Source of the DNA: Myxococcales bacterium
Lineage (GTDB): Bacteria; Myxococcota_A; Polyangia; Polyangiales; Polyangiaceae
Direction: 5' to 3'
Assembly (NCBI GenBank): GCA_043779025.1
Contig: JAYWGI010000096.1
Location: 1 to 42,191 of the forward strand
DNA length: 42,191 nt
In this document: one piece after another, positions 1 to 42,177 of the stretch
Numbering within the stretch: the first letter of the stretch is position 1
Layout of the letters: each line of letters opens with the position of its first letter
Translations under genes and position numbers: made by a program
The notes under the pieces: model-generated
What the model was told of the DNA's origin: nothing
Seen by the model: only the letters and a program-made list of their open reading frames with translations
Database searches by the model: none

Positions 1-281
1 CGCTCCCCCGGATCGCTCACAATGGGCGTACCGGCATCACTCACATACGCCAGTGTTTTGCCGAGCAAAAGCTCGTCGGCGAGCGCTTGGACTTCGGCGT
101 CCGTGGAGTGGTCATGCAGCGCGCGCACGGTCTTCCCGCCCAGCTCCAGATGCGAGAGCAGGTTGCGTGTGTGGCGCGTGTCTTCGGCTACGACGATGTC
201 CGCAAGTTTGAGCGTATCGACGGCGCGGAGTGTAATGTCCCCCAAATTTCCAATGGGTGTGGACACCACGTAAAGCGTCAT
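1..281 (-). CDS. rsmI: 16S rRNA (cytidine1402-2'-O)-methyltransferase RsmI, N-terminal ~93 codons; the 3' end runs off the window
   Basis: The minus-strand frame is open to the window edge. It is absent from the ORF track because no stop lies in the window. ATG is at 281..279. The translation MTLYVVSTPIGNLGDITLRAVDTLKLADIVVAEDTRHTRNLLSHLELGGKTVRALHDH...LAYVSDAGTPIVSDPGE matches the RsmI N-terminus as I recall it (..PTPIGNL..AEDTRH..SDAGTP..DPG). Confidence 0.85.
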   Translation of the reverse strand, partial: MTLYVVSTPIGNLGDITLRAVDTLKLADIVVAEDTRHTRNLLSHLELGGKTVRALHDHSTDAEVQALADELLLGKTLAYVSDAGTPIVSDPGE

Positions 282-1306
282 GTGAGATCCGTCGCGTCGC
301 CCAGCTCTGCTTTTAGGTAGTCGCGCAGGCGCCCGGTCACACGTTGCTCAATCTGGCGCACGCGTTCGCGGGAGACACTGTAGCGATCGCCCAACTCCTG
401 CAGCGTCATGGGTTCGTCAGCCACGAGGCGTTCATCAAAAATAGCAAGCTCCTTTTCGTGCCGCAGCAGCGTGAGCCTGAAGCTCGCAAGCTTGTCCTTG
501 AGCATGGTTTGCAGTTCCTCGCCCGCGGCCAGCACCTCGGGGCCATCGGCGCTGGAGGCCAGCAAATCACCACGTGAAATGGTGCGTCCTTCGCCGTCGT
601 TGAGCGGCGCGTCCAGCGATTTCTCACCGCTCGAGAGACGGATGTCCATCTCGGTCACGTCGGTCTCCGAGACGCCAAGCTCTTTGGCGACGACCTCGGC
701 CGTGGGGCGAATCCCCATGGCTTCGAGCTGCGCTTTGGTCTTTTGCAAGTTGAAGAACAGCCGGCGCTGGTTCTGCGTCGTGCCTACCTTCACGAGGCGC
801 CAGTTGTTCAAAATGAACCGCAGCATATAGGCACGGATCCACCACGCCGCGTAGGACGACAGCTTCACCCCGCGGTATGGGTCGTAGCGCTTCACCGCTT
901 GCATGAGGCCGATGTTGCCCTCCTGCACGAGGTCCATAATGTTCTTGTACGCGCGCCGGTACTCGTACGCGAGCTTGACCACCAAGCGCAGGTTCGAGGT
1001 CACCAGCTTGGCTGCCGCTGCGGGGTCTTGATGCTCCACATAGCGGACGGCCAGGTCGCGCGTTTCGTCAGCGGTGAGCAACCGGTGGCGCTGCACCTCA
1101 CGCATGTAGGCCGCGAACGGGTCCAGGCGCGCGAGCGAGGCCTCACCGGCCTTGCCGGTACTCCGAGTGCGCACCGGCTTGATTGGGAGTTCGAGGTCCT
1201 TTTCATCGATGTCGGCGAGCAGATCCGGCTCGGCATCGTCATCCACGATTTCGGTTTCGAGTTCTTCGCCCGCGGCGGTCTGAGACTTGGGATTTTCGTC
1301 GCTCAC
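278..1306 (-). CDS. rpoH: RpoH-like (sigma-32 family) RNA polymerase sigma factor, 342 aa
   Basis: This is the C-terminal 342 codons of track ORF 278..1852. Region 2 reads DLVQEGNIGLMQAVKRYDPYRGVKLSSYAAWWIRAYM. An RpoH-box-like QNQRRLFFNLQK is present. Region 4.2 reads TLQELGDRYSVSRERVRQIEQR. I chose GTG at 1306..1304, preceded by AAGAGG with 7-nt spacing (VSDENPKSQ...). The longer ATG-started ORF would run through the divergent gene at 1397. Confidence 0.85.
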   Translation of the reverse strand: MSDENPKSQTAAGEELETEIVDDDAEPDLLADIDEKDLELPIKPVRTRSTGKAGEASLARLDPFAAYMREVQRHRLLTADETRDLAVRYVEHQDPAAAAKLVTSNLRLVVKLAYEYRRAYKNIMDLVQEGNIGLMQAVKRYDPYRGVKLSSYAAWWIRAYMLRFILNNWRLVKVGTTQNQRRLFFNLQKTKAQLEAMGIRPTAEVVAKELGVSETDVTEMDIRLSSGEKSLDAPLNDGEGRTISRGDLLASSADGPEVLAAGEELQTMLKDKLASFRLTLLRHEKELAIFDERLVADEPMTLQELGDRYSVSRERVRQIEQRVTGRLRDYLKAELGDATDLT

Positions 1307-1396
1307 GTGTATACCTCTTAGGGGCAAAGACAGGGGTCGTGTAGCACGCCCAAGCCCACGTGGGCGAGCGCTCTCCTTGCCAGTATTTCGAAGCCC

Positions 1397-2542
1397 ATGA
1401 CATCCATCCCGCCTGCCGCTCCGCACGAAGCGCTCCACCAGCCAAGCTTCGCCTTGGACGAGGCGGACTTCGAGTGGTTGCGAGGTGCGGAAAGCTCGCG
1501 CGCAGACGCGGCGGCCTTCGTGCTTCGGGTTCAGGCGTGGCTGGATGCCGAGCTCGCGGCGGTGGGGCATCACGTCGACGGCCTCAGCACCGATTTGCAG
1601 TTCGATGTGCCCTCCGGCCGGGTGCGGGTGCGGCTTGGGTTGCAGGCGCGGGGTCCACGCAGTGGCGCCACCGTAGACTTGGAGATGGATGCCGTGGGTG
1701 TGCAGGCCTACTTGGTCATCCCCACGGCGCAGCGCGGTGGGGCGTACGTAGACGCAAAAAACTTTCATGCTGCACTCGCGGATGCTGCGGGCGCCGAGCG
1801 CCTCATGAAGTCGCTGGGCGATCTGCCCGATGTGTTCGTGATGGGCGCGCACGGTAAGCTGGTCACGGTGGGTCGCGACCCTGACCCCAAACGCGTGCAG
1901 CGCGCCATCGAAGATGCCGAGCTCCGCGACCTACCGTTTCTCTTGGGCTGCTCCTTTCCGCGCGCGACCGTGATGGCCTTGGGCGAGGATCTCGCCGACG
2001 CGCTCGACACGGTGCTGATGGCGCTCCTGCCTTTGCTGCATCAGATCGCTTGGTCGCCCGACAATGATTGGCTCCCCGCCCAACCGCGTTCCAGATCGCG
2101 AAGCGCCGTCGCGCGCGCACGTCGCCGCGGCCCCCCGCGAGACGCGGAGCGACGCCGATCCATTCTGGAATCGCTTGCGCTAGACGGCGAACCTCCTGCC
2201 GACATGGCGGGCACAAACGAATCTGATCGCGCGCCGCCGCGAGTCGCACTGGCCCTGCCTCGTCCAAAGTTGCATTCTACAACTTCTACGAGGGGCCTGC
2301 GAAGCTTGGTCTCGGCCGATCGCGTCGATGCTGGAATTCCTCTCGCTGTTGGAGCCAAGGTACGCGCTTCCACCGGCGCCTTCGAGGGTAAGGTGGGCAC
2401 GGTGCTCGAACTGGACGAGGCGCATGCACGCGTCGCGTTTGGGCCACTCACGGCGCGCTGCCGCAACGATGAACTGGGCGTGGTGGTTCCCCCGCGTACG
2501 CAGCCGCCGCTTGGCAGCTCGCACCGAAAGAAGAGCAAATGA
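1397..2542 (+). CDS. hypothetical protein with Arg/Pro-rich linker and C-terminal KOW-like segment
   Basis: The ORF is 381 aa with GC3-rich coding character and no catalytic motif that I recognise. The C-terminal GAKVRASTGAFEGKVGTVLELDE..ARVAFG resembles a KOW motif. Its stop overlaps the next start (ATGA at 2539-2542). The start codon lacks a clear RBS. Confidence 0.55.
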   Translation: MTSIPPAAPHEALHQPSFALDEADFEWLRGAESSRADAAAFVLRVQAWLDAELAAVGHHVDGLSTDLQFDVPSGRVRVRLGLQARGPRSGATVDLEMDAVGVQAYLVIPTAQRGGAYVDAKNFHAALADAAGAERLMKSLGDLPDVFVMGAHGKLVTVGRDPDPKRVQRAIEDAELRDLPFLLGCSFPRATVMALGEDLADALDTVLMALLPLLHQIAWSPDNDWLPAQPRSRSRSAVARARRRGPPRDAERRRSILESLALDGEPPADMAGTNESDRAPPRVALALPRPKLHSTTSTRGLRSLVSADRVDAGIPLAVGAKVRASTGAFEGKVGTVLELDEAHARVAFGPLTARCRNDELGVVVPPRTQPPLGSSHRKKSK

Positions 2543-9904: not shown

Positions 9905-11995
9905 ATGAAAGAGCCTACCGCAGTACCTCTCGGGCCGGTGTTCTCGCTTGCCGACAATCTGCGCGGTCTTGCCACGAGCTGGACGGGAGAATGGCGCGAT
10001 GTCGTTGCGCAGAGGGCCTTTGTCGCCGACCTGCTTGCGGGCTTGACGGTTGCCGCGGTCGCGCTCCCGTTGAATCTTGCACTTGCCGTGGCGAGCGGGC
10101 TGCCCGCGAGCGCGGGGCTCGTTTCGGGGGCGATTGGTGGCGGCATCGCGGGCTTCTTTGGTGGGGCATCGTTGCAAGTCACAGGGCCAGCGGCGGCACT
10201 CTCCACCATGGTACTCGCGCTCGCCGTGGAGTTTGGTGCCGAGGGCGTGGCGGTGGCCTGTTTGGTTGTAGGGGTGGTGCAGCTTGCGATGGGCCTCTCG
10301 GGGGCCGGTCGACTCGCGAGGTACGTGCCCGAGTCCGTGCTGGCCGGATTCACGACGGGCGTTGGTCTGAAATTGCTCGATGGTCAGGTGCCCGAGTTTC
10401 TGGGCTTCAAGATCTTGGGCTTCGACCACAAGCTCATCGACATCGCAAAAATGATGCACGAGCCCAAGTGGCTGCATCATGTGTCGTGGCTCTCGGTGAC
10501 ATGTGGCTTGGCGGTCGCATTTATGGTCACCAAATTTGCAGCCTACAAGCGCTTTCCGGCCGCCATTGTAGGCATTGCGTTGGCGACATTTGTATCCGTG
10601 TACTTGGACTGGGACATCTCGCGCGTGGGTGAGGTGCCGTCTTCGCTTCCGCATCCCAGCCTCCCATCGCTGGACGACGACCGCTTGCTCGACCTTCTGG
10701 TCGCGGCCGTGCCGCTCGGTGTGCTTGCGGGCGTTGAGTCCTTGCTGTCTGCGCGCGGCGTCGACCGTATGGTGCCAACGCGCAAGGCGCACAATTCAAA
10801 CCTCGAGCTGGTTGGACAAGGCCTGGCAAACGCGGCTGTGGGACTCATGTCAGGCTTGCCGGTCAGCGGCGTCGTGGTGCGTTCTACCGTGAACGTGCAG
10901 AGCGGAGCGAAGACGCGTTTGGCGTCCATCACGCACGCGGCGCTGCTGGTCGTGGCCGTGCTGTACCTCAGCAAGTTCATTGCTCAAGTGCCCGTGGCCG
11001 CGCTGGCGGGCCTCTTAATCGTGATCGCAATTCGGCTCGTGGAGGTGCGCGAGCTTGTGCATCTTGCGAAGACCGACGTTGCGGGTGCCCTGGCCTTTGT
11101 GGTCGCCTCAGTCGGTACCCTATCGGGGCATCTTATGCTGGGCCTGGTGGGGGGGCTCGTCGTGCATCATGTAAGCGCGTATTTACGGCGCCTTGATCCT
11201 ACGACGACGCCTCGTGTGCTGCGAGAGGCGGGCAGTCAGGGCCAGGAACACGGCGTGCGAGCAACGCTCGGGCGCGCGCAGGCCCTGGCCCGCCGACCGT
11301 TGGGGCGAGGTCATGGGCCTGTGCCCGAAACCGCCAAGTGGCTGTCACAGATTCAAGGGCGCGGCTTGCGTGCGCGCAGTTCGTTTGTGCATGAGCAGGC
11401 GTCCGTCGTGGGGCGCGTGTTCATGGGCGACAACGTGCATATTGCAGCGGGTAGCTCGGTGCGTGCTGACGAGGGAACGCCATTTTTTATCGGCGCCAAC
11501 ACCAATCTACAGGACGGAGTGACCTTGCATGCGCTCAAGGACAAGACCGTGAACGTGGCCGGTGAAGCGTGGGCCATCTACATCGGACAAGATGTCTCGG
11601 TTGCGCACAACGCTTTGGTGCATGGCCCTTGTTACGTTGGCGATCGCACCTTCATTGGTTTCAAGTCCATCGTGCACGACTCGGTGGTGGGATCCGACTG
11701 CTTCATTGGGCATGGGGCGACCGTGGTGGGCGTGGAGATACCGGACGGTCGCCATGTGCCTAGCGGCCGCATCGTGGACTCCGCCGAGGCCGTGGCCAAG
11801 CTGCCGCTCGCCACGGCGCAGCAACATGAGTTCAACGAGGATGTGGTGTACGTGAACATTGGTTTGGCCGAGGCGTATCAAAAGGATCGCATCTCGCCGG
11901 CTCAGCCGGGAATGTCCGTGCAAGTGCGCAAAGATTCGCTGGCCAGCTGGGAGTCCAGCTGGGTACCGGCGCCGTTTTCGAAGGAGAGGTTCTAA
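9905..11995 (+). CDS. SulP-family anion transporter fused to a Cam-type gamma-carbonic anhydrase domain (no STAS domain)
   Basis: 696 aa. The N-terminal ~430 aa is SulP-like polytopic membrane (..GLPASAGLVSGAIGGGIAGFFGGASLQVTGPAAAL..). A linker of about 60 aa is Arg-rich. The C-terminus (nt ~11380-11992) reads VRADEGTPFFIGANTNLQDGVTLHAL...VSVAHNALVHGP...IPDGRHVPSGRIV...EDVVYVNIGLAEAYQK. This parallels Methanosarcina Cam as I recall it (IRSDEGMPIFVGDRSNVQDGVVLHAL..VSLAHQSQVHGP..IPDGRYIPAGMVV..EAVVYVNVHLAEGYKE), including the three His ligand positions. Confidence 0.85.
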   Translation: MKEPTAVPLGPVFSLADNLRGLATSWTGEWRDVVAQRAFVADLLAGLTVAAVALPLNLALAVASGLPASAGLVSGAIGGGIAGFFGGASLQVTGPAAALSTMVLALAVEFGAEGVAVACLVVGVVQLAMGLSGAGRLARYVPESVLAGFTTGVGLKLLDGQVPEFLGFKILGFDHKLIDIAKMMHEPKWLHHVSWLSVTCGLAVAFMVTKFAAYKRFPAAIVGIALATFVSVYLDWDISRVGEVPSSLPHPSLPSLDDDRLLDLLVAAVPLGVLAGVESLLSARGVDRMVPTRKAHNSNLELVGQGLANAAVGLMSGLPVSGVVVRSTVNVQSGAKTRLASITHAALLVVAVLYLSKFIAQVPVAALAGLLIVIAIRLVEVRELVHLAKTDVAGALAFVVASVGTLSGHLMLGLVGGLVVHHVSAYLRRLDPTTTPRVLREAGSQGQEHGVRATLGRAQALARRPLGRGHGPVPETAKWLSQIQGRGLRARSSFVHEQASVVGRVFMGDNVHIAAGSSVRADEGTPFFIGANTNLQDGVTLHALKDKTVNVAGEAWAIYIGQDVSVAHNALVHGPCYVGDRTFIGFKSIVHDSVVGSDCFIGHGATVVGVEIPDGRHVPSGRIVDSAEAVAKLPLATAQQHEFNEDVVYVNIGLAEAYQKDRISPAQPGMSVQVRKDSLASWESSWVPAPFSKERF

Positions 11996-16584: not shown

Positions 16585-16908
16585 ACCCTAAGGGTGCATG
16601 GTGCCTCCTGCCCGGGCAAGTCCGTTGTTTAACTTCTTCCCCCGGCCCGTGAGTCTGGCTGATGGAGCGGTTCGCAACAATGGAGTGGGCCCGCCCACCA
16701 CATGCGCACATGACGTGCACACGGAGTCCACGCTGCGAGCAAAAAAGCGCCTTTTTGCGTACATGTCGCACCCTGTGCGCTCTACTGCCGATCGGCGGCA
16801 TTCCACATTCGGCCGTATCGCAAATCGCGGAAGATCGCGGCGTTCTTGTTCGCCCAAATAGTTATGCATGGCGAGTGCACGTTGTCGAGGCGCCCTACAA
16901 ACTTTTTT

Positions 16909-16924
16909 TGGCACGGTGCTTGCT
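16909..16924 (+). promoter_or_regulatory. sigma-54 (-24/-12) promoter for the downstream sigma-factor gene
   Basis: TGGCACGGTGCTTGCT equals the TGGCACG-N4-TTGCW consensus exactly. GG is at 16910-11 and GC at 16922-23. It lies 45 nt upstream of ATG 16969, which has a GAGGAG RBS at 16958-16963, and it is preceded by a T7 tract. Confidence 0.6.
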
Positions 16925-16968
16925 GGGGGTTCTACGGACACCCCAGTCCACCTTTTGAGGAGCACCGA

Positions 16969-18477
16969 ATGAGCCGTCACCGCGCCGAAGCCCCCGCAGT
17001 TGCCTTTCCAACCAAAGACTTGGAGCCGATTTCCGCGCGTTCGTTCGAGCTAGAAGATCGCGGTCCGGCTTCGGTCCCCATGTCGGTGGGGCCTCGCAGC
17101 CGTATGCCCGCGAGCAAGGTTCTTGAGCTGTCGCCCTCAGAGGACGACGAGGTCGAGTCGCCATCGGAGAACGAGGGCCTCGCTCCTGAGAGCACGGTGG
17201 TTGTGCGCAGTACGCAAGCTTCGGAAGAGGGGGCGGACAACATGCTGTCTCGCTACTTCCGCGACATGTCGAATCACGACGTGATGACGCAAGAAGCCGA
17301 AGCGCAGCTCGCCAACTCGGTGGAGGATGCTGAGAGCAATCACTGGAGCACGCTGCTTAGCTACGAGTCTGAATCGGTTGCTTTGCTCAACTTCGTTGCT
17401 GGCGAGGCCGCCAAGCTTGCAGAGAGCACGGCCGTGCGCGGTTTGGCGGAGTTGACTGCGCTGTTCACCAAACGCGCTTCGGGAAAGAGTGTGCGTGCGA
17501 AGGACCTCGCAAATGAAAAAATCTGGCTGCGCGAGTTCGGTGAAGATGTGCGGCGATTGGATGTCGATCGTGAGTGGATGTACGCCGCGGCCCGTTTCGC
17601 CAAGACAGGCCGTCTTGATGGTCGCAGTTCCTCATTTGATAGCTCCGAAGACGAACAGACTTCTCGTAACGCTGTGAAGACTGAGACCGAGGACGATGAC
17701 CGTCCCAGCCTGCGTGTGGTGGATACTGCGCGTCTTGCATGGATTGCGCGCATTGACGAAAGCACCCGTGTGGTGCGCTCGGCCAAGGATCGCTTCGTGC
17801 GCGCCAACCTCCGTTTGGTCGTCTCCATCTCGCGTCGTTACAACCGTGGTCGCATGTCACTCATCGACATCATCCAGGAGGGAAACATCGGCCTTATGAA
17901 GGCGGTAGAGCGCTTCGATTACAAGAAGGGCTTCCGCTTCTCTACCTACGCGTCGTGGTGGATTCGTCACGCCATCAGCCGCGCCATGGCCGACAAAGGC
18001 CGCGCAGTCCGCGTCCCTGTGCACATGCTCGACTCGCACTACAAGGTACAGAAGATCACGTCCGCCATGCGCACTTTGGTGGGCCGCGCCCCTACGCTCG
18101 CTGAGCTTGCCGAGACCACGGGCTTGCCCGAGGACAAGCTGAGCAAGATGTTGCCTGGTGTGACGGAGACCCCGCTGTCGCTGGATCGCACGGTGGGCGA
18201 TGACGAAGGCTTACGCTTCATCGACTTCTTGGAAGACGAGAGCCCCTGCGACCCTTCGGAGCGCATGCAAAACGAGGCGTGGCGCTCGGAAGTGGAGCGT
18301 CTCATGGGCCAGCTCTCGCCGATGGAAAACCGTATCTTGCGTCTGCGTTTTGGTTTCGAGAATGAAACCGAGCTCACGCTGAAGGAGATCGGCGAGCAGT
18401 ACAACCTCTCCCGTGAACGCATCCGTCAACTTCAGGAGCAGGCGCTCGGGAAGATGCGCAAGCAGCTCGACGACTGA
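16969..18477 (+). CDS. RpoD-family (group 1/2-like) sigma-70 factor, 502 aa
   Basis: The ATG at 16969 has a GAGGAG RBS. The track start at 16846 would place the sigma-54 promoter inside the CDS. The region 1.2-like stretch is MLSRYFRDMSNHDVMTQEAE. Region 2 is IQEGNIGLMKAVERFDYKKGFRFSTYASWWIRHAISRAMAD. Region 3 is VRVPVHMLDSHYKV. Region 4.2 is TLKEIGEQYNLSRERIRQLQEQALGKMRK. Confidence 0.85.
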   Translation: MSRHRAEAPAVAFPTKDLEPISARSFELEDRGPASVPMSVGPRSRMPASKVLELSPSEDDEVESPSENEGLAPESTVVVRSTQASEEGADNMLSRYFRDMSNHDVMTQEAEAQLANSVEDAESNHWSTLLSYESESVALLNFVAGEAAKLAESTAVRGLAELTALFTKRASGKSVRAKDLANEKIWLREFGEDVRRLDVDREWMYAAARFAKTGRLDGRSSSFDSSEDEQTSRNAVKTETEDDDRPSLRVVDTARLAWIARIDESTRVVRSAKDRFVRANLRLVVSISRRYNRGRMSLIDIIQEGNIGLMKAVERFDYKKGFRFSTYASWWIRHAISRAMADKGRAVRVPVHMLDSHYKVQKITSAMRTLVGRAPTLAELAETTGLPEDKLSKMLPGVTETPLSLDRTVGDDEGLRFIDFLEDESPCDPSERMQNEAWRSEVERLMGQLSPMENRILRLRFGFENETELTLKEIGEQYNLSRERIRQLQEQALGKMRKQLDD

Positions 18478-31561: not shown

Positions 31562-34500
31562 TTGAGAATTCCCGTTCGTTATAGGCTGTTGAAACCCTTG
31601 GGTTCGGGCGGCGCAGGTAGCGTGTGGTCGGTGCAAGATCGGGTGACGGGAGAGCGGCTGGCGCTCAAGCTTGTTCATGAAGGCGCGTCTGTGGGCGAGC
31701 TCGACGCATTGGTCCGAGAGGCAAGCGCGCTTGCAGCACTGTCACAAGCTGGGCTGCCCGGTGTGCGGGCCATCGGTCTTTTGCCGGGTACCCATCGTCG
31801 CTACCTGGTGCGCGAATTGGTTGAGGGGATCAGTTTGGACGATGTGCTCGAAAGCGACTTGCCTTGGCTGGGCGCATTCCTTTCCGCGTGCGATCAGCTT
31901 GCGCTGCTTCATCGTGCCGGGTCGCTTCACGGGGACATCAAGCCCGCCAACGTCATTGTGTCCAAGAGTGGCAGGGGGTGCCTTGTGGACTTGGGGCTCT
32001 CGGCGCCTCTCACACTTGGGGGCACACGAACGTTGGGGCTTACCCCGCGTTTTGCGGCGCCCGAGCTGCTCGAGGGCGAGCGCCTAACCGTGCGTGCCGA
32101 GGTCTATTCGGTGGGGGCAACGTTGCGCGATTGTGTCGCGCGACGCGGAGATGAACTGCGCGAGGATTTGCGCCTTGGCCTCACCCGAGCGGTGAACCGC
32201 GCGATCTCCTTGCAGCCGGCTGCGCGTCACCCGTCGGTAGACGAATTTCTTGCCGAAATTGCGGCCGTTCCGGGCGTCGAGTTGCCTGCGCGCTCGCGGG
32301 CGCTGGTTTGGCGCGTGGACGGAATTTCCGACACGGTACGTGGAATCGCCGACAGCGTACGGGCGCTGCAGCACGGACAAATACTTGGGATGTGGGGCCC
32401 CACAGGAAGCGGTCGCAGCACGCTCGGGCGCGAGCTTGCGTGGAGCTTCGCCGCCGGCGGAGAGGACGTGGTTCATATCGTCCCCGCTGTGGACCAGCGC
32501 GCGGAATTGCAGTCGCTTGGGGCCAAAGTCTTGGCGATTTATGCGGAGGAACTTGCGGCACGCCCCGATGCCGTGCTGGTTGTGGACGACTTCGATCGCT
32601 TGAGCGAAGAGTCGCGCATGGCCTTACTCGCGCTGCAAGAGGCGAAGCATCGCGCGGTGCTTGTTGGGCATGATGCGCATGCTTTTGGGGGTCTAGAGAT
32701 TGCAGCCCACTACGAGGTTCAGCCGCTGAGCATCGCGAGCCAAGAGTCCCTCGTTCGTACGGCCATCCCTTCGGCCTCACGCACGGCCGTCCTGGCGATA
32801 GTGGACCATGCAAAGGGGAGGCCCGGAGCGCTACGCGAGCTGGTGGAGCGCTGCGCAGGGAGTGCGATGGTGAGCCGTGGTGATGTTGAGCGAGCCAAGT
32901 TTGGTGCGGCGACGCACGGCACCCAAGACTGGAACGAGGTGCTGCGTTCGGCGCTCAACTCAGGCCGTTTCGCCGCGGCGCGCGTGGCGCTACAGGAGCT
33001 CGAAAAAGGAGCCGCGACGGCGCATGCTTTTGAGCGCTGCCTAGGTGAGGTGCGGGTGCGCATTGCGCAGGGCGACAACGAAGGGGCTGGTATGTGGTTG
33101 GGGCGCGCCGAGGCAGCGGGCGCAAGTCGCCACGAGCGTGTAGAAGTGCACTTGTATCGAGCGCGCTTGATGCTGCGAAGTGGCGACTATGACGGGATTG
33201 AGCCTGTGCTTTCGAGCGCCGTTTCGCTGGGTGAAGCCACCTTCGAGCTGCGCGTCGTGGCCGCGCTGGCACAAGCCATGGCGCGCCCTACTCTGCAAAA
33301 CGTTGCCGTGTTGCATGCGCTGCATCGTGACATGTCGCCCGAGCAAGGGCCGCGTGCTCGCGCCATCGCAGCAGGTTCGCTCGCCATCGCGGAGCAGCGT
33401 GCAGGGGATACCGAAGCCGCGCGCGCGCACTATGCTGAAGCGGTTGTGAACGCTGAAGAAGCGGGCGACGGCTGGGTCCTATGTTCAACTTACGTGAACA
33501 GTGCCGGCCTTGCGCACGTGGCAGGTCAAATGGTCGATGCGCTGCGCCTCTGTGAAGCCGCCATCGACCTTGCCGAACGTTTGGGTGCCGATTTGGCGGC
33601 GTATACGGCGACCCTAAACTTGATCGCTTTCAATCTTCAGCTGGGACGCTATGAGCGAGCGGCAAAAAGTATCGGCTCGCTCGAGGACTACGATCTCTCG
33701 CCCTACGCCGACGCGCAATTGTACGGCCTGCGTGCGGAGCTATTGGAGCGTGGCCTCAATTGGGACGAGGCAAGTGTAAACTACACTCAATGCGCCGAAC
33801 GCTTCCGTGCCATCGGTATGCATGCCGACGCCTGCGAAGCGGAGCTCAACTTGCTTTCGTGCGATACCGCACGGGCGCAGATCGCAAACTCAGATTTGGA
33901 GCGCCGTCTCGAGGCGTTGCGTTTGACCTCTGAAGAGGCGGGCGCGACAGAGATTCAGTCCCTGTGGAATTACGTGGCTGCTCGTGTGATGCGCCGCGTG
34001 CGGGGGCCGCACGAAGGGCTCGCCGCCTACTTGACGGCTGCAGATGTGGCGCGAAAGTCGTCTTCGAAGGAGCTGCTTTGGCAAGCATTGCAGGGCGTTG
34101 CCGAGGCGCATCGTGACTTAGGGGCGCCTGCGCTGGGGCATCGCGCGGCCACCGAGGCGCTCGAAGTATTGGAGGCGATTGCGTTGCCGTTGCCGCGAGA
34201 CCTCTGTGAGGTGTTCTGGAATGACGTGCGCCGATCGGAATTGCGTGGTCTTGCGGCCTCTCCCTCGCTTGGGGGCGTGTCCGTGGGGGCGCCCACCGTG
34301 GGGGCGGCATCGTCGATGGCCATGCAGCACTTGATCCAAAGCGCGCGTGCGTTGGTTCGAGTGCACGACCCCGAGCGAGTACTGCATGACACCTTAGAAC
34401 ACGCCGTAGCGATCGTCGGCGGTGTGCGGGGCATGCTCTACTACCGCGACCCGTTGGGCCGCCCCGCATGGGTGACGCCTTACAACTTTGAACCCGCGCA

Positions 34501-35860
34501 AAACGCGAACGTCCGGGCGCGTTTGGAGCAGTGCGCCGATTCGGGAGAAGTGCAGCTGAGCGCCGAAGGCGATGCGGGGGCATTTGTCTGCATGCCCATC
34601 CCCCGAACACCGATGCAGGTGGGGTTGTCGACCACAGTGGGCGGCCTTAACCAGGGGGCAATTTACGTGCAGACTGCAAGTACATCTCAGACACGTCTTA
34701 ACGAAAATGCAGGCGTGCTCGCTGCTCTGCTTGCGCAGGCCGCCGCGGTTTTAGACACGGCCCGTTTGGTGGCGAGACTCAAGCGTCAGAAGGAGCGCGT
34801 GTCCGAACTTTTGGACAAGCGCAGCCGCTCGCTGCATAGCTCCCGGGCAGAGTTGCGGGCGGTCAGGTCGGAGCTCAAGGAGAGCCAGAGCTTTGGCGCG
34901 ATGGTGGGAAGTTCGAAGCCGATGCGGATGCTCTTCGAAGCGATTCGCCGTGTCGCACCATCGGACATACCTGTGCTGGTGCGGGGCGAGAGCGGGACTG
35001 GAAAGGAGCTGGTCGCGCGCGCACTGCATGAGGCCTCGCCGCGGAAGGATGCGCCCTTTGTCGCGATCAACTGTGCTGCAATTCCGGCATCGGTGCTCGA
35101 AGGCGAGCTATTTGGCTATAGAAAAGGCGCGTTCACAGGGGCAACGCGAGACCACGAGGGCTTAGCGTTGGCAGCGCGTGACGGTACATTTTTTCTGGAT
35201 GAAGTGGGCGAGATGCCACTGGCAATGCAGGCCGCGATGCTGCGCGTGCTCCAGGAGCGCGTGGTGCGTCCACTTGGTTCCTCCGACGAGGTGCCGATGC
35301 GTGCGCGCGTCATCGCTGCAACGCATCGTGACCTTGCCGCGATGGTGCGCGAGGGCACCTTCCGCGAAGACCTCTACTATCGCATCGAAGTCGTCACACT
35401 GCACGTGCCGTCGCTTCGGGAACGCCGCGAAGACATCGGACTGCTTGCCGACTCCTTTTTGCGACGCGCGAGTGTGGCGCACAATCGTCCTCGAAAAACG
35501 TTGAGTCGTAGTGCTCGCGAATTGCTGATGTCCGCGCCCTGGCCCGGCAACGTGCGTCAGCTGGAGCATACACTGACTTCCGCTGTGCTCTTCTCGGATG
35601 ACGAAACGCTGCATGCGGCAGACTTGAACCTTGTGCGCGCCGACGCCGAGACTCCTATGCGTTTGGGCACCGTGCCTAGCGGCAAAGATGTGGCCGGGTT
35701 GAGCTCCCAGCTGTGTGACAAGGAGCGCTGTTTGCAGGCCCTGGAAGTCGCGGGGGGCAATCGTGTTCGCGCGGCGAGTGCACTCGGAATCCCGAGACGA
35801 ACCTTCTATAGGCGCCTCGCAGAACTCGGAATTGGCGCAAAAATCTCAAAAAAAGCCTAG
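31562..35860 (+). CDS. multidomain regulator: Ser/Thr protein kinase - P-loop NTPase (STAND-like) - TPR-like helical region - GAF - sigma-54 AAA+ activator - Fis-type HTH, 1432 aa
   Basis: The kinase has [27 protein letters not shown] (HGD at 31928-31936), VDLGLS and FAAPELL. The P-loop is [14 protein letters not shown] (Arg codon at 32414-32416 where Lys is expected), with Walker [12 protein letters not shown] long Ala/Leu-rich helical repeat region follows. The GAF-like stretch is ..[31 protein letters not shown].. The EBP has [25 protein letters not shown] (35126-35143), [19 protein letters not shown] and FREDLYYRI. The HTH is [26 protein letters not shown]. The only possible starts upstream of the glycine loop are TTG codons (31562 or 31589). 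Confidence 0.85.
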
Positions 35861-38920: not shown

Positions 38921-39070
38921 AACAGAGCCCTTGTCAAGTCCTCAGAAGTAACAATTCGATTCTTTCGGTAACCCTTTTGGCTCGGGCACGTACTCACGCG
39001 AATCCACGTGGAGGAATTCTCTCTTCGTGGGGCACAGACGTCGCGTGACGTCCTTCAGGAGAGCCCACAA

Positions 39071-40297
39071 ATGCAACTACGCACCCAATCCATTTTCATC
39101 GCAGCGGCATCCAGTGTCGTCTCGTTGGGACTACTTGCTGCTTGCAGCAGCGACGACAACAAGACCGTGGTCACAACCCCGACCAAAGACACCGGCACCA
39201 TTATGCCCGTCGACTCCGGCATGCCGCCGGCTGTAGATTCTGGCACCCCCCAAACGGCTTGTCAGAAGTATGGCGGCGCCGCCAACATCGACAAAATCGT
39301 GCAGACGGACCTAGTCACGGCCCTCGCTGGTGACTGCCGCATTAGCCGTCACTTTACCGACCTCATCAACGGCTCCGACGCATCCCGTTTGGTTCACGTC
39401 AGCGAGTGCTTGAGCACCCAGGTGCAAGAGCTTTTCGGCTGCGAGGGCGTGAAGTACGAGGGCTCCAAAGACAAGGCCGGCGCTGCATGCCGCAATATGG
39501 TTGCAGCGCATGCCAACGCTCCGAACAAGATTGCGCAAAAGGACTTTGATGCGCTCATTGAGGACGTCGTCGCGGTGCTGACCGCCAAGGGCGTTTCGGC
39601 GGCCGACATCGGCGCAGTAGCACCCGCGCTCACAAGCCCCGGTATGAAAGCTGCCGTTATCACTGCGCCCGCGGCCACGCCCACCAACTGCAATGTGCAG
39701 CCCGACACCACCTCAGCCGACGGCAAATGCGCCGCGGCAACGGGCATCACCACGTGTAGCTCGCCCGCGCAGAGCGCTTGCGTCAAGTACGGTGGTCGCG
39801 CCAACATCGACAAGATCGTCCAGGAGGACTTGGTCACCGCGCTTGCTGGCGACTGCCGTATCAGCAAGCACTTCACGGATTTGGTTAGCTCCACGGGCGA
39901 TGCAACCCGCTTGGTCCACGTTAAGGAGTGCTTGAGCACCCAAGTGCAAGAGCTCTTCGGCTGCCCAGGTGCCAGCTACGCCGGGTCCAAGGACAAGGCC
40001 GGCGTTCTCTGTCGAGACATGGTGGCCGCACACGCAAGCGCACCTAGCAAAATTGCGCAAAAAGACTTCGATGCGCTTATCGAAGATGTGGTCGCAGTCT
40101 TGACCGCGAAGGGCGTCACAGCGGCCGACATCGGCGCGGTGGCCCCGGCGCTCACGAGCACCAGCATGAAGGCCGCAGTCATCACGGCCCCCGGTGCCGC
40201 ACCCACCAACTGCAACATCAAGCCGGACACCTCCGCGGGCAAGAAGTGCGCGGTAGGCGGAGCATCGCCCACGACCACCTGCGCTACAGGCACCTGA
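39071..40297 (+). CDS. lipoprotein with two tandem truncated-hemoglobin-like (2-on-2 globin-like) Cys-rich domains
   Basis: The ATG at 39071 follows CAGGAGAG. The signal plus canonical lipobox is MQLRTQSIFIAAASSVVSLGLLAAC. There are two units of about 151 aa. Each reads ..C.KYGG.ANIDKIVQ.DLVTALAGDCRIS.HFTDL......RLVHV.ECLSTQVQELFGC.G..Y.GSKDKAG..CR.MVAAHA.AP.KIAQKDFDALIEDVVAVLTAKGV.AADIGAVAPAL.. This pattern lines up with trHbN/GlbN motifs: K.GG, D.RI..FF, a GG-type hinge, M..AH and FDA...GV. The fold call is from memory, not from a search. Confidence 0.7.
   Translation: MQLRTQSIFIAAASSVVSLGLLAACSSDDNKTVVTTPTKDTGTIMPVDSGMPPAVDSGTPQTACQKYGGAANIDKIVQTDLVTALAGDCRISRHFTDLINGSDASRLVHVSECLSTQVQELFGCEGVKYEGSKDKAGAACRNMVAAHANAPNKIAQKDFDALIEDVVAVLTAKGVSAADIGAVAPALTSPGMKAAVITAPAATPTNCNVQPDTTSADGKCAAATGITTCSSPAQSACVKYGGRANIDKIVQEDLVTALAGDCRISKHFTDLVSSTGDATRLVHVKECLSTQVQELFGCPGASYAGSKDKAGVLCRDMVAAHASAPSKIAQKDFDALIEDVVAVLTAKGVTAADIGAVAPALTSTSMKAAVITAPGAAPTNCNIKPDTSAGKKCAVGGASPTTTCATGT
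39257..40231 (+). repeat. internal tandem duplication (period 519 nt / 173 aa) within the lipoprotein gene
   Basis: Unit 1 spans 39257-39709 (A63-T213) and unit 2 spans 39776-40231 (A236-T387). The units are about 80 percent identical at protein level by eye, with many differences at synonymous positions. Compare AAGATTGCGCAAAAGGACTTTGATGCGCTCATTGAGGACGTCGTCGCGGTGCTGACC with AAAATTGCGCAAAAAGACTTCGATGCGCTTATCGAAGATGTGGTCGCAGTCTTGACC. Confidence 0.9.
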
Positions 40298-40310: not shown

Positions 40311-41090
40311 ATGAACAACACATCGCCAACGCCCCGTAGCTATCGTCGGTTCCTGAAGCCCTTGAGCATCATCGCCGGCGTTGTCGTCACGTACATTGGT
40401 GTGGTGGGCTTTGCCCACACTCCCAAAGGTCGGCCGCTGCTCCCTTACTTGGGGCTGCAGTACTTCGGCTCTGCGGCGGCGTCGGCGATGTGTCCCGTGG
40501 GCGGAAAAGATCCAAGCCCTGAGCGTCTTGAGGCTCAGCGGGTTAATGCCATGCAAACGATGCGTGGCACTGGCTTAGCGCCTTCCAATCAGGTGCTCGG
40601 GTTCACGCTCGAGAAAACGCAAAAGTCCGAGGTTCTGGCTTGGGCGGCAGCTTCGCACATTGCGTGTAAGTTGCAGGTTTCAGAGCAGGCCTTGGATTGC
40701 TCCGACGTACACACCAATGCACTGCCGCGCGACTCTGAGGTTGCGAGCGCCGCAGGCGCAGACCGCACCATCGATTCGTTGTTTATGCGCTTCCGTCCCG
40801 ACGGCGTGCTTGTAGGCATCGATGCCATGTTGACGGACAGTTCTGGCAACGGACAGCGTGCGGCCGAACACTATGCTGCGGCGTCTCAAGATCTGGCCTC
40901 GCGCTTCGGCGCTCCGAACTTGCAGAGCGCGCAGACTGCGGGCTCCACCGACGAGCTCCTGGCCAAACCCTTTAGTCAGCGGCAGGTCGTTTATCGCTAC
41001 GAAAACCTTGCGGTGGACGTACGCCTGCTCTCCACGAGCGGTGGGCGGCTGATGTGGCGCGCGCAGTACCGTTCTGTGCCGCGCGTGTAA
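40311..41090 (+). CDS. single-pass membrane-anchored hypothetical protein
   Basis: 259 aa. The N-terminal anchor is RRFLKPLSIIAGVVVTYIGVVGFA, followed by a domain of about 210 aa with no motif I recognise. It starts 13 nt after the lipoprotein stop and is preceded by GAAAGG. Confidence 0.6.
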   Translation: MNNTSPTPRSYRRFLKPLSIIAGVVVTYIGVVGFAHTPKGRPLLPYLGLQYFGSAAASAMCPVGGKDPSPERLEAQRVNAMQTMRGTGLAPSNQVLGFTLEKTQKSEVLAWAAASHIACKLQVSEQALDCSDVHTNALPRDSEVASAAGADRTIDSLFMRFRPDGVLVGIDAMLTDSSGNGQRAAEHYAAASQDLASRFGAPNLQSAQTAGSTDELLAKPFSQRQVVYRYENLAVDVRLLSTSGGRLMWRAQYRSVPRV

Positions 41091-41133
41091 TGTACACTTG
41101 AGCGTTGCCCGGGCTTCCACAACGCCCCTCTCT

Positions 41134-42177
41134 ATGAGACGCTCAAAACTAAGCGCGATGGCCGAGAAGAAATCCGAACATCAGACCGAACGCGAGGTGG
41201 TAAAGCCTCGCGCTTCCTTGTTGCCGGGAGACTTGTCGGGCTTTCGGCTTTCGTCGATCCCATCGATCGACGAAAACGATGTACCTACCGAAGAAAAGGT
41301 GCCGACGCTCGCCTCCTTGGGTGGTGAAGCCTGCGGAATACTCACTGTGCTCAGCGGGTTCAATGCAGGGCAAGTTCAGGTGCTCGCGGTCGGCGACTGC
41401 GTGGTTGGCCGAGGCCAGGACGCCGATTTTTGGGTCGACGATGCGGGCGTCAGTCGTAAGCACTCGCGGTTCATCAAGCGAGGGGACAGCTTCTACGTAG
41501 AGGACTTGGGGTCCACCAATGGCACGTTTGTCGACTCCCAAAAAGTGGTGGGCGCGCAGCGGTTGGGCCCATCGCATCGTGTGCAGTTGGGGGCCTCCGT
41601 GCAGGCCTCTTTCGAGATCGTCGACGTGGCCCAGGCGCTGCTCCGAAAGCGCCTTTACGACACGTCTACCCGAGATGCGCTTACGGGTGTCTATACCCGA
41701 AAGTATTTTTTGGACCGCTTGCCCACGGAGATCGCCTACGCGCGCCGTCACCGCAGCGAACTTGCGCTTTTAGGTATCGATATCGATCACTTCAAAAAAG
41801 TAAACGACACCCATGGCCATGCTGCTGGCGACGCGGTACTCCGCGGTGTGGCCGATCGACTGCTGCAGCTTATTCGAATCGAAGACGTGCTCGTCCGCTT
41901 CGGCGGCGAAGAGTTTTTTATCTTGGCTCGAACCACCGAGGCCGTGCAGTCGGGGGCGCTGGCGGAGCGTATCCGCCGCGCGATTGAGATATTTGTTGTA
42001 CCGTTTGAGCTTACGCCTTTGAGCGTCACGCTGAGCATCGGGGCATGCAACCTCTCGGAGGTTGCATCGGGCGACGCCGAAGAGTTCTTACGTATCGCAG
42101 ACACGCGCATGTACACCGCCAAGCAAACCGGACGAAACCGCGTGTGCTTCAAGGATCCGCTACCTGTTTCCGAATAG
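41134..42177 (+). CDS. FHA-domain diguanylate cyclase (GGDEF) with RxxD I-site
   Basis: The FHA region is ..VVGRGQDADFWVDDAGVSRKHSRFIKRGDSFYVEDLGSTNGTFVD.. The GGDEF region is ..DALTGVYTRKYF...IDIDHFKKVNDTHGHAAGD..RIEDVLVRFGGEEFFIL. GGEEF is at 41902-41916, and RIED at 41875-41886 lies five residues upstream. The start is uncertain (TTG 41098, ATG 41134 or ATG 41158). Confidence 0.85.
   Translation: MRRSKLSAMAEKKSEHQTEREVVKPRASLLPGDLSGFRLSSIPSIDENDVPTEEKVPTLASLGGEACGILTVLSGFNAGQVQVLAVGDCVVGRGQDADFWVDDAGVSRKHSRFIKRGDSFYVEDLGSTNGTFVDSQKVVGAQRLGPSHRVQLGASVQASFEIVDVAQALLRKRLYDTSTRDALTGVYTRKYFLDRLPTEIAYARRHRSELALLGIDIDHFKKVNDTHGHAAGDAVLRGVADRLLQLIRIEDVLVRFGGEEFFILARTTEAVQSGALAERIRRAIEIFVVPFELTPLSVTLSIGACNLSEVASGDAEEFLRIADTRMYTAKQTGRNRVCFKDPLPVSE

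Follow-up and report, generated by a model that had tools for sequence, protein, structure and literature searches.

Truncated haemoglobins (trHbs) have been studied almost wholly as small cytoplasmic proteins that detoxify nitric oxide (NO) or handle O2. Here we analyse a stretch of 42,191 nucleotides from a Myxococcales bacterium (GenBank assembly GCA_043779025.1, contig JAYWGI010000096.1, positions 1 to 42,191 of the forward strand), referred to below as the window, which holds a gene for a globin lipoprotein followed by a gene for a membrane-anchored partner. We are highly confident that the first of these, the open reading frame (ORF) at 39071..40297, encodes an exported lipoprotein with a tandem trHb fold. 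Its domains resemble the group I trHbs, namely M. tuberculosis HbN, Synechocystis/Synechococcus GlbN, the proteins of Tetrahymena, Paramecium and Chlamydomonas, and trHb1 of Shewanella benthica, in their 2-on-2 fold, with template modelling (TM) scores of up to 0.83. Unlike the cytoplasmic group I trHbs, the window protein is predicted to be exported and lipid-anchored, and it carries two domains per chain.

Three described systems come close in one respect or another. In cable bacteria, the lPHCtX proteins are periplasmic fusions of multihaem cytochromes with trHbs (Kjeldsen 2019, summarised in PMC11976967). As presented in that summary, each lPHCtX protein has one or two trHb domains behind a signal peptide and in the cell envelope, which is also the arrangement of the window protein; the latter differs in having no c-type cytochrome domain or CXXCH motif, in its lipoprotein anchor and disulfide stapling, and in belonging to another phylum and having another partner gene. 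Multi-unit trHbs have been catalogued in silico (Hade et al. 2017, via review PMC7475203), and in the account of that review the multi-unit globins of the T1/N group are found in ciliates, the bacterial multi-unit forms belonging to the O and P groups. The catalogued proteins and the window protein alike have tandem 2-on-2 units in one polypeptide; compared with the multi-unit trHbs reported there, the window protein is bacterial and N-type, exported and Cys-rich. Outside the trHbs, the latex-clearing protein (Lcp) is exported by the Tat pathway. Lcp is a secreted globin-fold haem-b rubber dioxygenase of Gram-positive rubber-degrading bacteria (PMC5522427); in contrast to the window protein, it has a 3-on-3 fold and a single domain, and is not a lipoprotein.

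A homology search with the globin lipoprotein returned 38 relatives, 16 of them two-unit proteins, with named sources that are all Myxococcota metagenome bins. A profile built from 35 of the units gave 22 matches in the PDB (E 7e-12 to 1e-4), every one of them a group I trHb, from Tetrahymena, Chlamydomonas, Paramecium, M. tuberculosis (HbN), Shewanella benthica and cyanobacteria (GlbN proteins), and their proximal F8 His lines up with the His that is invariant across the family. Using hhalign in place of HHpred, the family was compared with a canonical trHbN alignment (M. tuberculosis and Synechocystis sequences checked against published residue numbering), which yielded a probability of 98.9% and an E value of 2e-17; the likeness to trHbs thus goes well past what chance would give. 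The AlphaFold2 (AF2) model of unit 1 is all-helical, with a predicted local distance difference test (pLDDT) score of 90.7 and a predicted TM-score (pTM) of 0.84; when this model was run against the PDB with Foldseek, the best 38 matches were all trHbs, group I first, with target-normalised TM-scores of up to 0.83 and probabilities of 0.82-1.0, mostly 1.0. Taken together, these computations show the mature part as two tandem domains predicted to have the group I (N-type) trHb fold. An earlier note on this DNA, made from the letters alone, had proposed a globin fold, and it is borne out here in that profile and model comparisons match trHbs only. The domains nevertheless belong to the superfamily as divergent members and are not typical of trHbN.

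To describe the haem pocket, 273 domains of the wider family were aligned with HbN and GlbN using MAFFT. The proximal His F8 is kept in 270 of these and is invariant in all 35 close units, so that the His of the MVAAH motif, which the earlier note had taken for the proximal ligand, is indeed conserved; in the window protein it corresponds to His147 and His321, which align with His81 of M. tuberculosis, His70 of Synechocystis and His73 of Tetrahymena. Of the same 273 domains, 258 have Phe at CD1 (Phe95 and Phe268 in the window protein), 269 have the Y-x-G Tyr, and 254 have Met at F4, four positions ahead of the His. The conservation of these four residues argues strongly that haem binding has been retained, and going by the sequence each domain is quite likely to bind haem. 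Also common to the window domains and the group I trHbs, besides Phe CD1, the pre-F Y-x-G and His F8, are the pattern of the G and H helices and the Gly-Gly hinge of the AB corner, which reads KYGG in both units (first Gly in 260 and second Gly in 192 of the 273 domains). All the motifs listed by the earlier note, namely KYGG, DCRISxHF, FGCxG..Y.G, MVAAH and FDALIEDVVAVLTAKGV, are present in both units.

The distal side is where the window domains depart from group I. The Gly-Gly hinge of the EF corner is replaced by Gly-Cys (FGC), its Cys being one of the conserved disulfide cysteines. Position B10, a Tyr in group I trHbs, is Val82 in unit 1 and Val255 in unit 2 by three alignment methods that agree; across the wider family 223 domains have Val, Ile or Leu there, against only 22 with Tyr. 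The earlier statement that the B10 Tyr has become a Leu therefore stands as to the loss of the Tyr, whereas the Leu it named is the adjacent B9. For the E helix we prefer the MAFFT register, because it is free of gaps and agrees with the DSSP helix limits of the AF2 model. In this register E7 is Val, E10 is a conserved Cys and E11 is Leu, and a Gln stands at E14 where canonical proteins carry Phe; of the 273 domains, 215 have Leu at the position read as E11 and 219 have the 'invariant' Gln. E7 and E11 come out aliphatic in both complete registers (MAFFT and HMMER; hhalign gives a third), with one Gln as the sole polar candidate for the pocket. Unlike group I trHbs, then, the window domains have Val/Leu at the positions read as Gln E7/E11 and Gln at that read as Phe E14, and the polar distal network of Tyr B10 with Gln E7 and/or E11 is absent from the protein. 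We infer an aliphatic distal pocket made up of Val B10, Val/Leu E7, Leu E11 and Leu G8, plus the single invariant Gln of the E helix.

A further difference from group I trHbs is that each window domain contains six Cys, at residues 64, 89, 113, 124, 140 and 207 in unit 1 and 237, 262, 287, 298, 314 and 381 in unit 2, the first Cys of the tail being one of the conserved six in the family alignment. This is the number given in the earlier note, which had also recognised the two mini-loops C220-x8-C229 and C393-x10-C404; an extra small loop of the C220-C229 type is limited to the sub-clade of the window protein. The E-helix Cys (unit position 55) and the Cys of an 8-residue pre-F insertion (position 82) co-occur in 229/229 domains (r = 1.00), which indicates a disulfide tying the E helix to the pre-F loop. 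The remaining conserved Cys, at unit positions 6, 31 and 66 and the first of the tail, co-occur as a block, and rare domains with four Cys retain either 31 and the tail Cys (four domains) or 6 and 66 (two domains), which suggests the pairings 31-tail and 6-66. Co-occurrence thus implies three conserved disulfides per domain. The even number of Cys per unit, together with export by Sec, is consistent with oxidative folding in the periplasm.

Export itself is indicated by the N-terminus. The ATG at 39071 is preferred as the start over an in-frame GTG at 39008 because an AGGAG sits 9 nucleotides (nt) upstream of it. From this start, residues 1-25 are MQLRTQSIFIAAASSVVSLGLLAAC, and they satisfy a PROSITE-type lipobox rule (basic n-region, hydrophobic core, [LVI][ASTVI][GAS]C, Cys at position 15-35), with Arg4 in the n-region and Cys25 as the lipobox Cys. 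Among the best matches of the wider family, 155 proteins are N-complete, and at least 99 of them likewise carry a lipobox. Behind Cys25 lies a flexible linker, counted as residues 26-60, and homologues have low-complexity linkers of varying length. Computation therefore shows the globin lipoprotein as a predicted substrate of Sec and signal peptidase II, whose mature part would be tethered at Cys25 by the flexible linker; the canonical LLAAC lipobox and Pro/Thr linker reported earlier are both there, and the lipobox recurs in homologues. In Myxococcus, Lys at position +2 is a signal for retention in the inner membrane. The residue at +2 after Cys25 is Ser, and sorting of the globin lipoprotein to the outer membrane is our guess.

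Self-comparison of the protein gives a repeat offset of 173 residues, which becomes 174 after a single indel, confirming the two tandem units and the period noticed earlier. The two units are 77-80% identical in amino acids and 71.5% in nucleotides. By the Nei-Gojobori method the ratio of nonsynonymous to synonymous substitution rates (dN/dS) between them is 0.087 overall and falls to 0.053 when the core alone is counted; dS is near saturation, at about 2. The low ratio shows that both units are under strong purifying selection, in agreement with what had been supposed from their many synonymous differences, and the near-saturated dS indicates that the duplication is old. Furthermore, sibling units of one protein are often mutual nearest relatives, across separate lineages, from which it follows that duplication has recurred. 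P0002, a protein with a single unit, matches unit 1 of the window protein at 91% identity but ends in a tail like that of unit 2, which suggests a change in copy number through recombination between units.

The wider family was collected by an exhaustive profile search over 1.84 billion representative proteins, which yielded 1456 clusters (50% identity) at E <=0.001, 388 at <=1e-10 and 91 at <=1e-30; among the members of the 388 clusters, not every one is exported or Cys-rich. Each protein has 1-9 stretches matched by HMMER, with up to 7 near-full-length domains. The close subfamily occupies 24 genome loci, all from Myxococcota bar one from Blastocatellia. Some multi-domain relatives match Pfam PF01152 and bear the automatic annotations 'hemoglobin', 'truncated hemoglobin YjbI' or 'group I truncated hemoglobin'; they include fusions to extracytoplasmic domains such as DUF4394, P/Homo-B and CarboxypepD_reg, with examples in Polyangia, in Nannocystis pusilla and in one species of Bacteroidota. 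This exported multi-domain set of Bac_globin proteins includes a five-domain lipoprotein (P0083), a seven-domain protein (P0081), a three-domain lipoprotein of Emticicia (WP_435352538.1, 'group I truncated hemoglobin'), and fusions with DUF4394 or P/Homo-B in Polyangia and Nannocystis pusilla. The proteins P0245-P0332 hold many such trHb fusions, with DUF4394, P/Homo-B, CarboxypepD_reg and DUF4215 (for example L032 5001..6722, Nannocystis pusilla); their named sources are all Myxococcota, many are annotated as truncated haemoglobin, and no literature on them was found.

The window protein shares with this set the lipobox, the tandem trHbN-type domains and, in the domains inspected, an aliphatic B10; the pair of E-helix and pre-F Cys is also common to both, except in the Emticicia protein. 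What separates the two is that PF01152 recognises the exported multi-domain set and not the window subfamily, and that the latter has two further putative conserved disulfides (6-66 and 31-tail), KYGG in every unit, and a strictly conserved partner with the AHT/GRPLL/GCP motif. A literature search on exported or lipoprotein trHbs, or on any myxobacterial one, found no study of the window family. The family of the globin lipoprotein is part of a larger set of exported multi-domain trHb proteins, annotated in databases and unstudied, and what is new here is a divergent, disulfide-stapled subfamily with an altered pocket and a partner gene. The earlier suggestion of a new type of globin holds for that subfamily, its pocket and its partner; it does not hold for exported multi-domain trHbs as such, which are already in databases.

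In 22 of 27 non-redundant loci the globin gene has a homologue of the partner as its immediate 3' neighbour, in the same orientation, and the partner family numbers 41 proteins with source names that are all Myxococcota. The partner protein has a single N-terminal transmembrane helix; directly beyond the membrane comes the invariant motif GFAHTxxGRPLL...GCP[VMLAI], and after it an alpha/beta domain that holds another two invariant Cys. H36 is invariant, as is C61-P62-[V/M/L/A/I] in 40/40 sequences; the Cys-Pro lies just beyond a segment modelled at low confidence (pLDDT <50 for residues 53-59). The globin and its partner probably form an obligate functional pair. Two other roles for partner sequences were considered and rejected: APGC cannot be a lipobox, lying about 25 residues beyond the transmembrane helix, and the cytoplasmic tail of only about 10-25 residues does not suit an anti-sigma factor.

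Related gene pairs occur with other globins. In the cultured Chondromyces crocatus (L006, CP012159), which is among the 22 loci, a partner homologue is found directly 3' of a shorter and more canonical lipoprotein trHb; this 191-residue protein (L006 5418..5993) has a poly-Thr linker, lacks the pre-F insertion and shows another Cys pattern. The five-domain lipoprotein P0083 (L031 5001..8008) overlaps by 4 nt a gene for a 283-residue transmembrane-anchored protein, and so, like the window globin, it is followed by a membrane-anchored protein, here one with weak similarity to the C-terminal half of the partner (hhalign probability 61%). At L022 2989..4496, on a MAG contig, a copy of globin and partner is broken over several reading frames, as a pseudogene or through a long-read assembly error.

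As for the genes around the pair, an extracytoplasmic function (ECF) sigma factor gene is adjacent in 9 of the 27 loci (L004 6934..8104 on the minus strand and the JGI locus of P0024 are examples) and a gene for a ChrR-type cupin anti-sigma factor in 7, and such pairs hint at a regulon for envelope or photo-oxidative stress. Ser/Thr kinase genes stand beside the globin gene in 11 of the 27 loci, in at least three arrangements, and five of the six kinases examined have a receptor-type topology (kinase domain, one transmembrane helix, extracytoplasmic tail). Examples of these kinase genes are L004 1335..2996, L010 3456..5369, L025 4125..5975 and L027 749..2689. In the window, an FHA-GGDEF diguanylate cyclase gene follows the partner and is probably co-transcribed with it; it was rejected as a component of the system, being a neighbour in only 3 closely related loci.

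With moderate confidence, we take the best overall explanation to be that the protein is a haem-b globin which faces the periplasm and binds small ligands, NO being the favoured candidate; its function is inferred from the features described above. Each domain would hold one haem b, ligated by His147 or His321, and would form three disulfides after export, between the pre-A and EF-hinge Cys, the B/C-corner and tail Cys, and the E-helix and pre-F insertion Cys. With the Tyr B10/Gln E7/Gln E11 network lost and an aliphatic pocket in its place, O2 would not be held stably and NO or CO would be preferred, possibly also sulfide on ferric haem. Cytochrome c' is a periplasmic protein with a His-ligated haem of the five-coordinate type and an apolar distal pocket, which discriminates against O2 and binds NO and CO. 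By analogy, the window globin might capture or buffer NO-like ligands in the periplasm as an envelope haem protein, in the manner of cytochrome c' and not of a cytoplasmic-style NO dioxygenase; the analogy is functional only and drawn from pocket composition, cytochrome c' being an unrelated four-helix bundle with covalent haem c. Such a role in scavenging NO or other small ligands is put forward tentatively, as a possibility. The globin gene would be co-transcribed with its orphan, membrane-anchored periplasmic partner, possibly under an envelope-stress sigma factor, and the partner could supply haem or redox equivalents to a globin that must acquire its cofactor after export by Sec. The partner is a candidate for haem loading or redox exchange because its invariant His and Cys-Pro-hydrophobic motif lie next to the membrane; that it is a haem loader is doubtful all the same, and a complete two-gene system, in which the partner would use His36 and the Cys-Pro to load haem onto Sec-exported, oxidatively folded apo-globin, is distinctly unlikely.

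Several observations weigh against the explanation of a ligand-binding haem globin served by its partner. Searched as a single sequence, the whole globin lipoprotein gave nothing significant in Pfam, NCBIfam or the PDB, so that the globin relationship is visible only through the family profile; unlike group I trHbs, the protein is below the Pfam threshold in this form, and Bac_globin (PF01152) weakly matched only 3 of the 35 units, with a best E of 0.002. The E-helix register differs among MAFFT, HMMER and hhalign, the Gln being E14 in the first and E10 in the second, and the disulfide pairs are deduced from co-occurrence alone, two of them from only 4 and 2 informative domains. To our knowledge, no reductase that could sustain catalytic turnover is evident in the periplasm, and among the genes of the 42-kb window we found none for haem, NO, redox or respiratory functions, only housekeeping and regulatory ones. 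The Cys-Pro-hydrophobic segment of the partner resembles a haem-regulatory motif, which lies in a flexible stretch and binds haem by its Cys thiolate, and of which a Cys-Pro dipeptide is a weak signature. Beyond its own family the partner has no relatives that we could find, a PDB profile search giving none, Pfam on 40 members only noise, and Foldseek TM-scores of about 0.2.

Other roles for the protein have to be set against these considerations. A lipoprotein for haem capture or storage, serving a predatory bacterium as a hemophore-like or receptor-like sink at the surface or in the periplasm in which the chemistry of the iron ligand would be irrelevant, would suit the lipid anchor, the flexible linker and the repeated duplication to 2-7 copies per bacterial polypeptide, and repeated haem-binding modules resemble the arrays of NEAT domains. 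An aliphatic pocket devoid of ligand-stabilising residues is expected if haem affinity alone matters, and the His and Cys-Pro of the partner could pass haem onward. Yet neither the identified neighbours nor the recurrent neighbour families include a TonB-dependent receptor, a haem ABC importer or a haem oxygenase, the conserved Phe CD1, Gln and Leu G8 suggest that iron-site chemistry is under selection, and the Pfam and Foldseek results show no relation in sequence or fold to known hemophores; we consider haem capture improbable. We judge in much the same way the proposal that the globin is a gas or redox co-receptor (for NO, O2, CO or redox state) signalling through the partner to kinases, the ECF pair or the FHA-GGDEF protein. 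The receptor-type Ser/Thr kinases of 11 loci, the adjacent ECF sigma and ChrR-type anti-sigma genes of 9 and 7 loci, and the window FHA-GGDEF gene that begins 7 nt after the partner are all in keeping with a sensor, and an apolar pocket that excludes O2 is the design principle of H-NOX proteins. However, some 10-25 cytoplasmic residues are too few for the partner to pass on a signal unaided. The kinase enrichment does not count as independent evidence either, since Myxococcota abound in Ser/Thr kinases and the loci have a common ancestry. The FHA-GGDEF gene is confined to its few related loci, and relatives with tandem arrays of 5-7 domains look more like stoichiometric binders than like sensors.

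The remaining two alternatives concern the haem itself. If the globin fold were free of haem, and had been recruited outside the cytoplasm as a scaffold held together by disulfides or to bind some other hydrophobic ligand, it would be easier to understand why the sequences are too divergent for Pfam Bac_globin, why the polar distal residues are lost, and why an 8-residue insertion and a disulfide lie beside the F region; non-haem globin families do exist (PMC8717448), and phycobiliproteins, RsbR and photoglobins are precedents. Retention of the proximal His in all but three of the 273 domains over deep divergence, equal conservation of Phe CD1, Met F4 and the Tyr of Y-x-G, and superposition of the model on haem-bound trHbN with a TM-score of about 0.8 make this very unlikely. 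Reduction of oxygen or electron transfer by a periplasmic haem protein has a model in cable bacteria, where the periplasmic trHb domains of the cytochrome-trHb fusions have been proposed as alternative terminal oxidases (PMC11976967), and cytochrome-c-like genes do occur within a few kb of the globin in two related loci (L001 and L006). The 408-residue protein has neither a CXXCH motif nor a cytochrome domain, the 27 loci show no consistent linkage to a cytochrome gene, and on general knowledge of globins an aliphatic pocket without O2-stabilising residues is poorly suited to O2 activation; an oxidase is thus hardly to be expected. The reading we retain is that of a haem-b globin of the envelope binding NO or similar small ligands, and the features on which it is built are located in Table 1.

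Table 1. Location of the globin lipoprotein, its parts and the genes that follow it, in window coordinates.
Feature	Position	Strand	Basis
Shine-Dalgarno-like AGGAG, 9 nt 5' of ATG	39057..39061	+	read from sequence
Globin lipoprotein coding sequence, 408 aa (amino acids), tandem truncated haemoglobin	39071..40297 (including stop codon)	+	ORF list; 38 homologues; purifying selection on both units
Predicted type II (lipoprotein) signal peptide; lipobox LLAAC, aa 21-25; Cys25 (lipidated), 39143-39145	39071..39145	+	lipobox rule; lipoboxes of relatives
Pro/Thr/Asp-rich flexible linker, lipid anchor to globin unit 1	39146..39241	+	composition
Globin unit 1, 2-on-2 fold	39242..39700	+	hidden Markov model (HMM) envelope; AF2 model; Foldseek; residue mapping
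Unit 1, B10 Val82	39314-39316	+	residue mapping
Unit 1, invariant Gln117	39419-39421	+	residue mapping
Unit 1, proximal His147	39509-39511	+	residue mapping
Inter-unit tail with Cys220-x8-Cys229 mini-loop	39701..39760	+	Cys pair limited to sub-clade of window protein
Globin unit 2	39761..40222	+	HMM envelope; 80% identity to unit 1; dN/dS 0.05-0.09
Unit 2, B10 Val255	39833-39835	+	residue mapping
Unit 2, Gln291	39941-39943	+	residue mapping
Unit 2, proximal His321	40031-40033	+	residue mapping
C-terminal tail with Cys393-x10-Cys404 mini-loop	40223..40294	+	sequence
Partner gene, 259 aa, 13 nt after globin stop	40311..41090	+	synteny; motif; AF2 pLDDT 86.6
FHA-GGDEF diguanylate cyclase gene, 7 nt after partner; near globin gene in 3/27 loci	41098..42177	+	Pfam

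Elsewhere in the window, three further observations were made. A 1432-residue fusion (31562..35860, plus strand) combines a Ser/Thr protein kinase, AAA/TPR regions, a sigma-54 activator AAA+ domain and a Fis-type helix-turn-helix. At 9905..11995 (plus strand), a SulP-family permease is fused to a C-terminal hexapeptide-repeat domain (left-handed beta-helix). Two sigma-70-family proteins, encoded at 278..1852 (minus strand) and 16846..18477 (plus strand), have N-terminal extensions of about 280-310 residues without a domain match.

Set against the cytoplasmic trHbs that have been studied, these results place a sizeable, Myxococcota-centred clade outside the cytoplasm, with members predicted to be lipid-anchored, tandemly multiplied and disulfide-stapled, and with a distal pocket apparently rebuilt as aliphatic. 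This raises the question of what chemistry a haem globin carries out in the envelope of a predatory soil bacterium, which is oxidising and poor in reductases. It also raises that of the route by which haem b reaches a Sec-exported protein, a long-standing gap for periplasmic b-type haem proteins, and here the orphan partner, strictly syntenic and marked by an invariant His and a Cys-Pro motif, is a specific candidate for haem delivery. Related gene pairs or domains are carried by the cultured Chondromyces crocatus Cm c5 and Nannocystis pusilla. If the two-gene reading were true, it would mean a new kind of periplasmic haem-b chaperone together with a class of envelope globins, binding NO or sulfide, that is widespread in Myxococcota.

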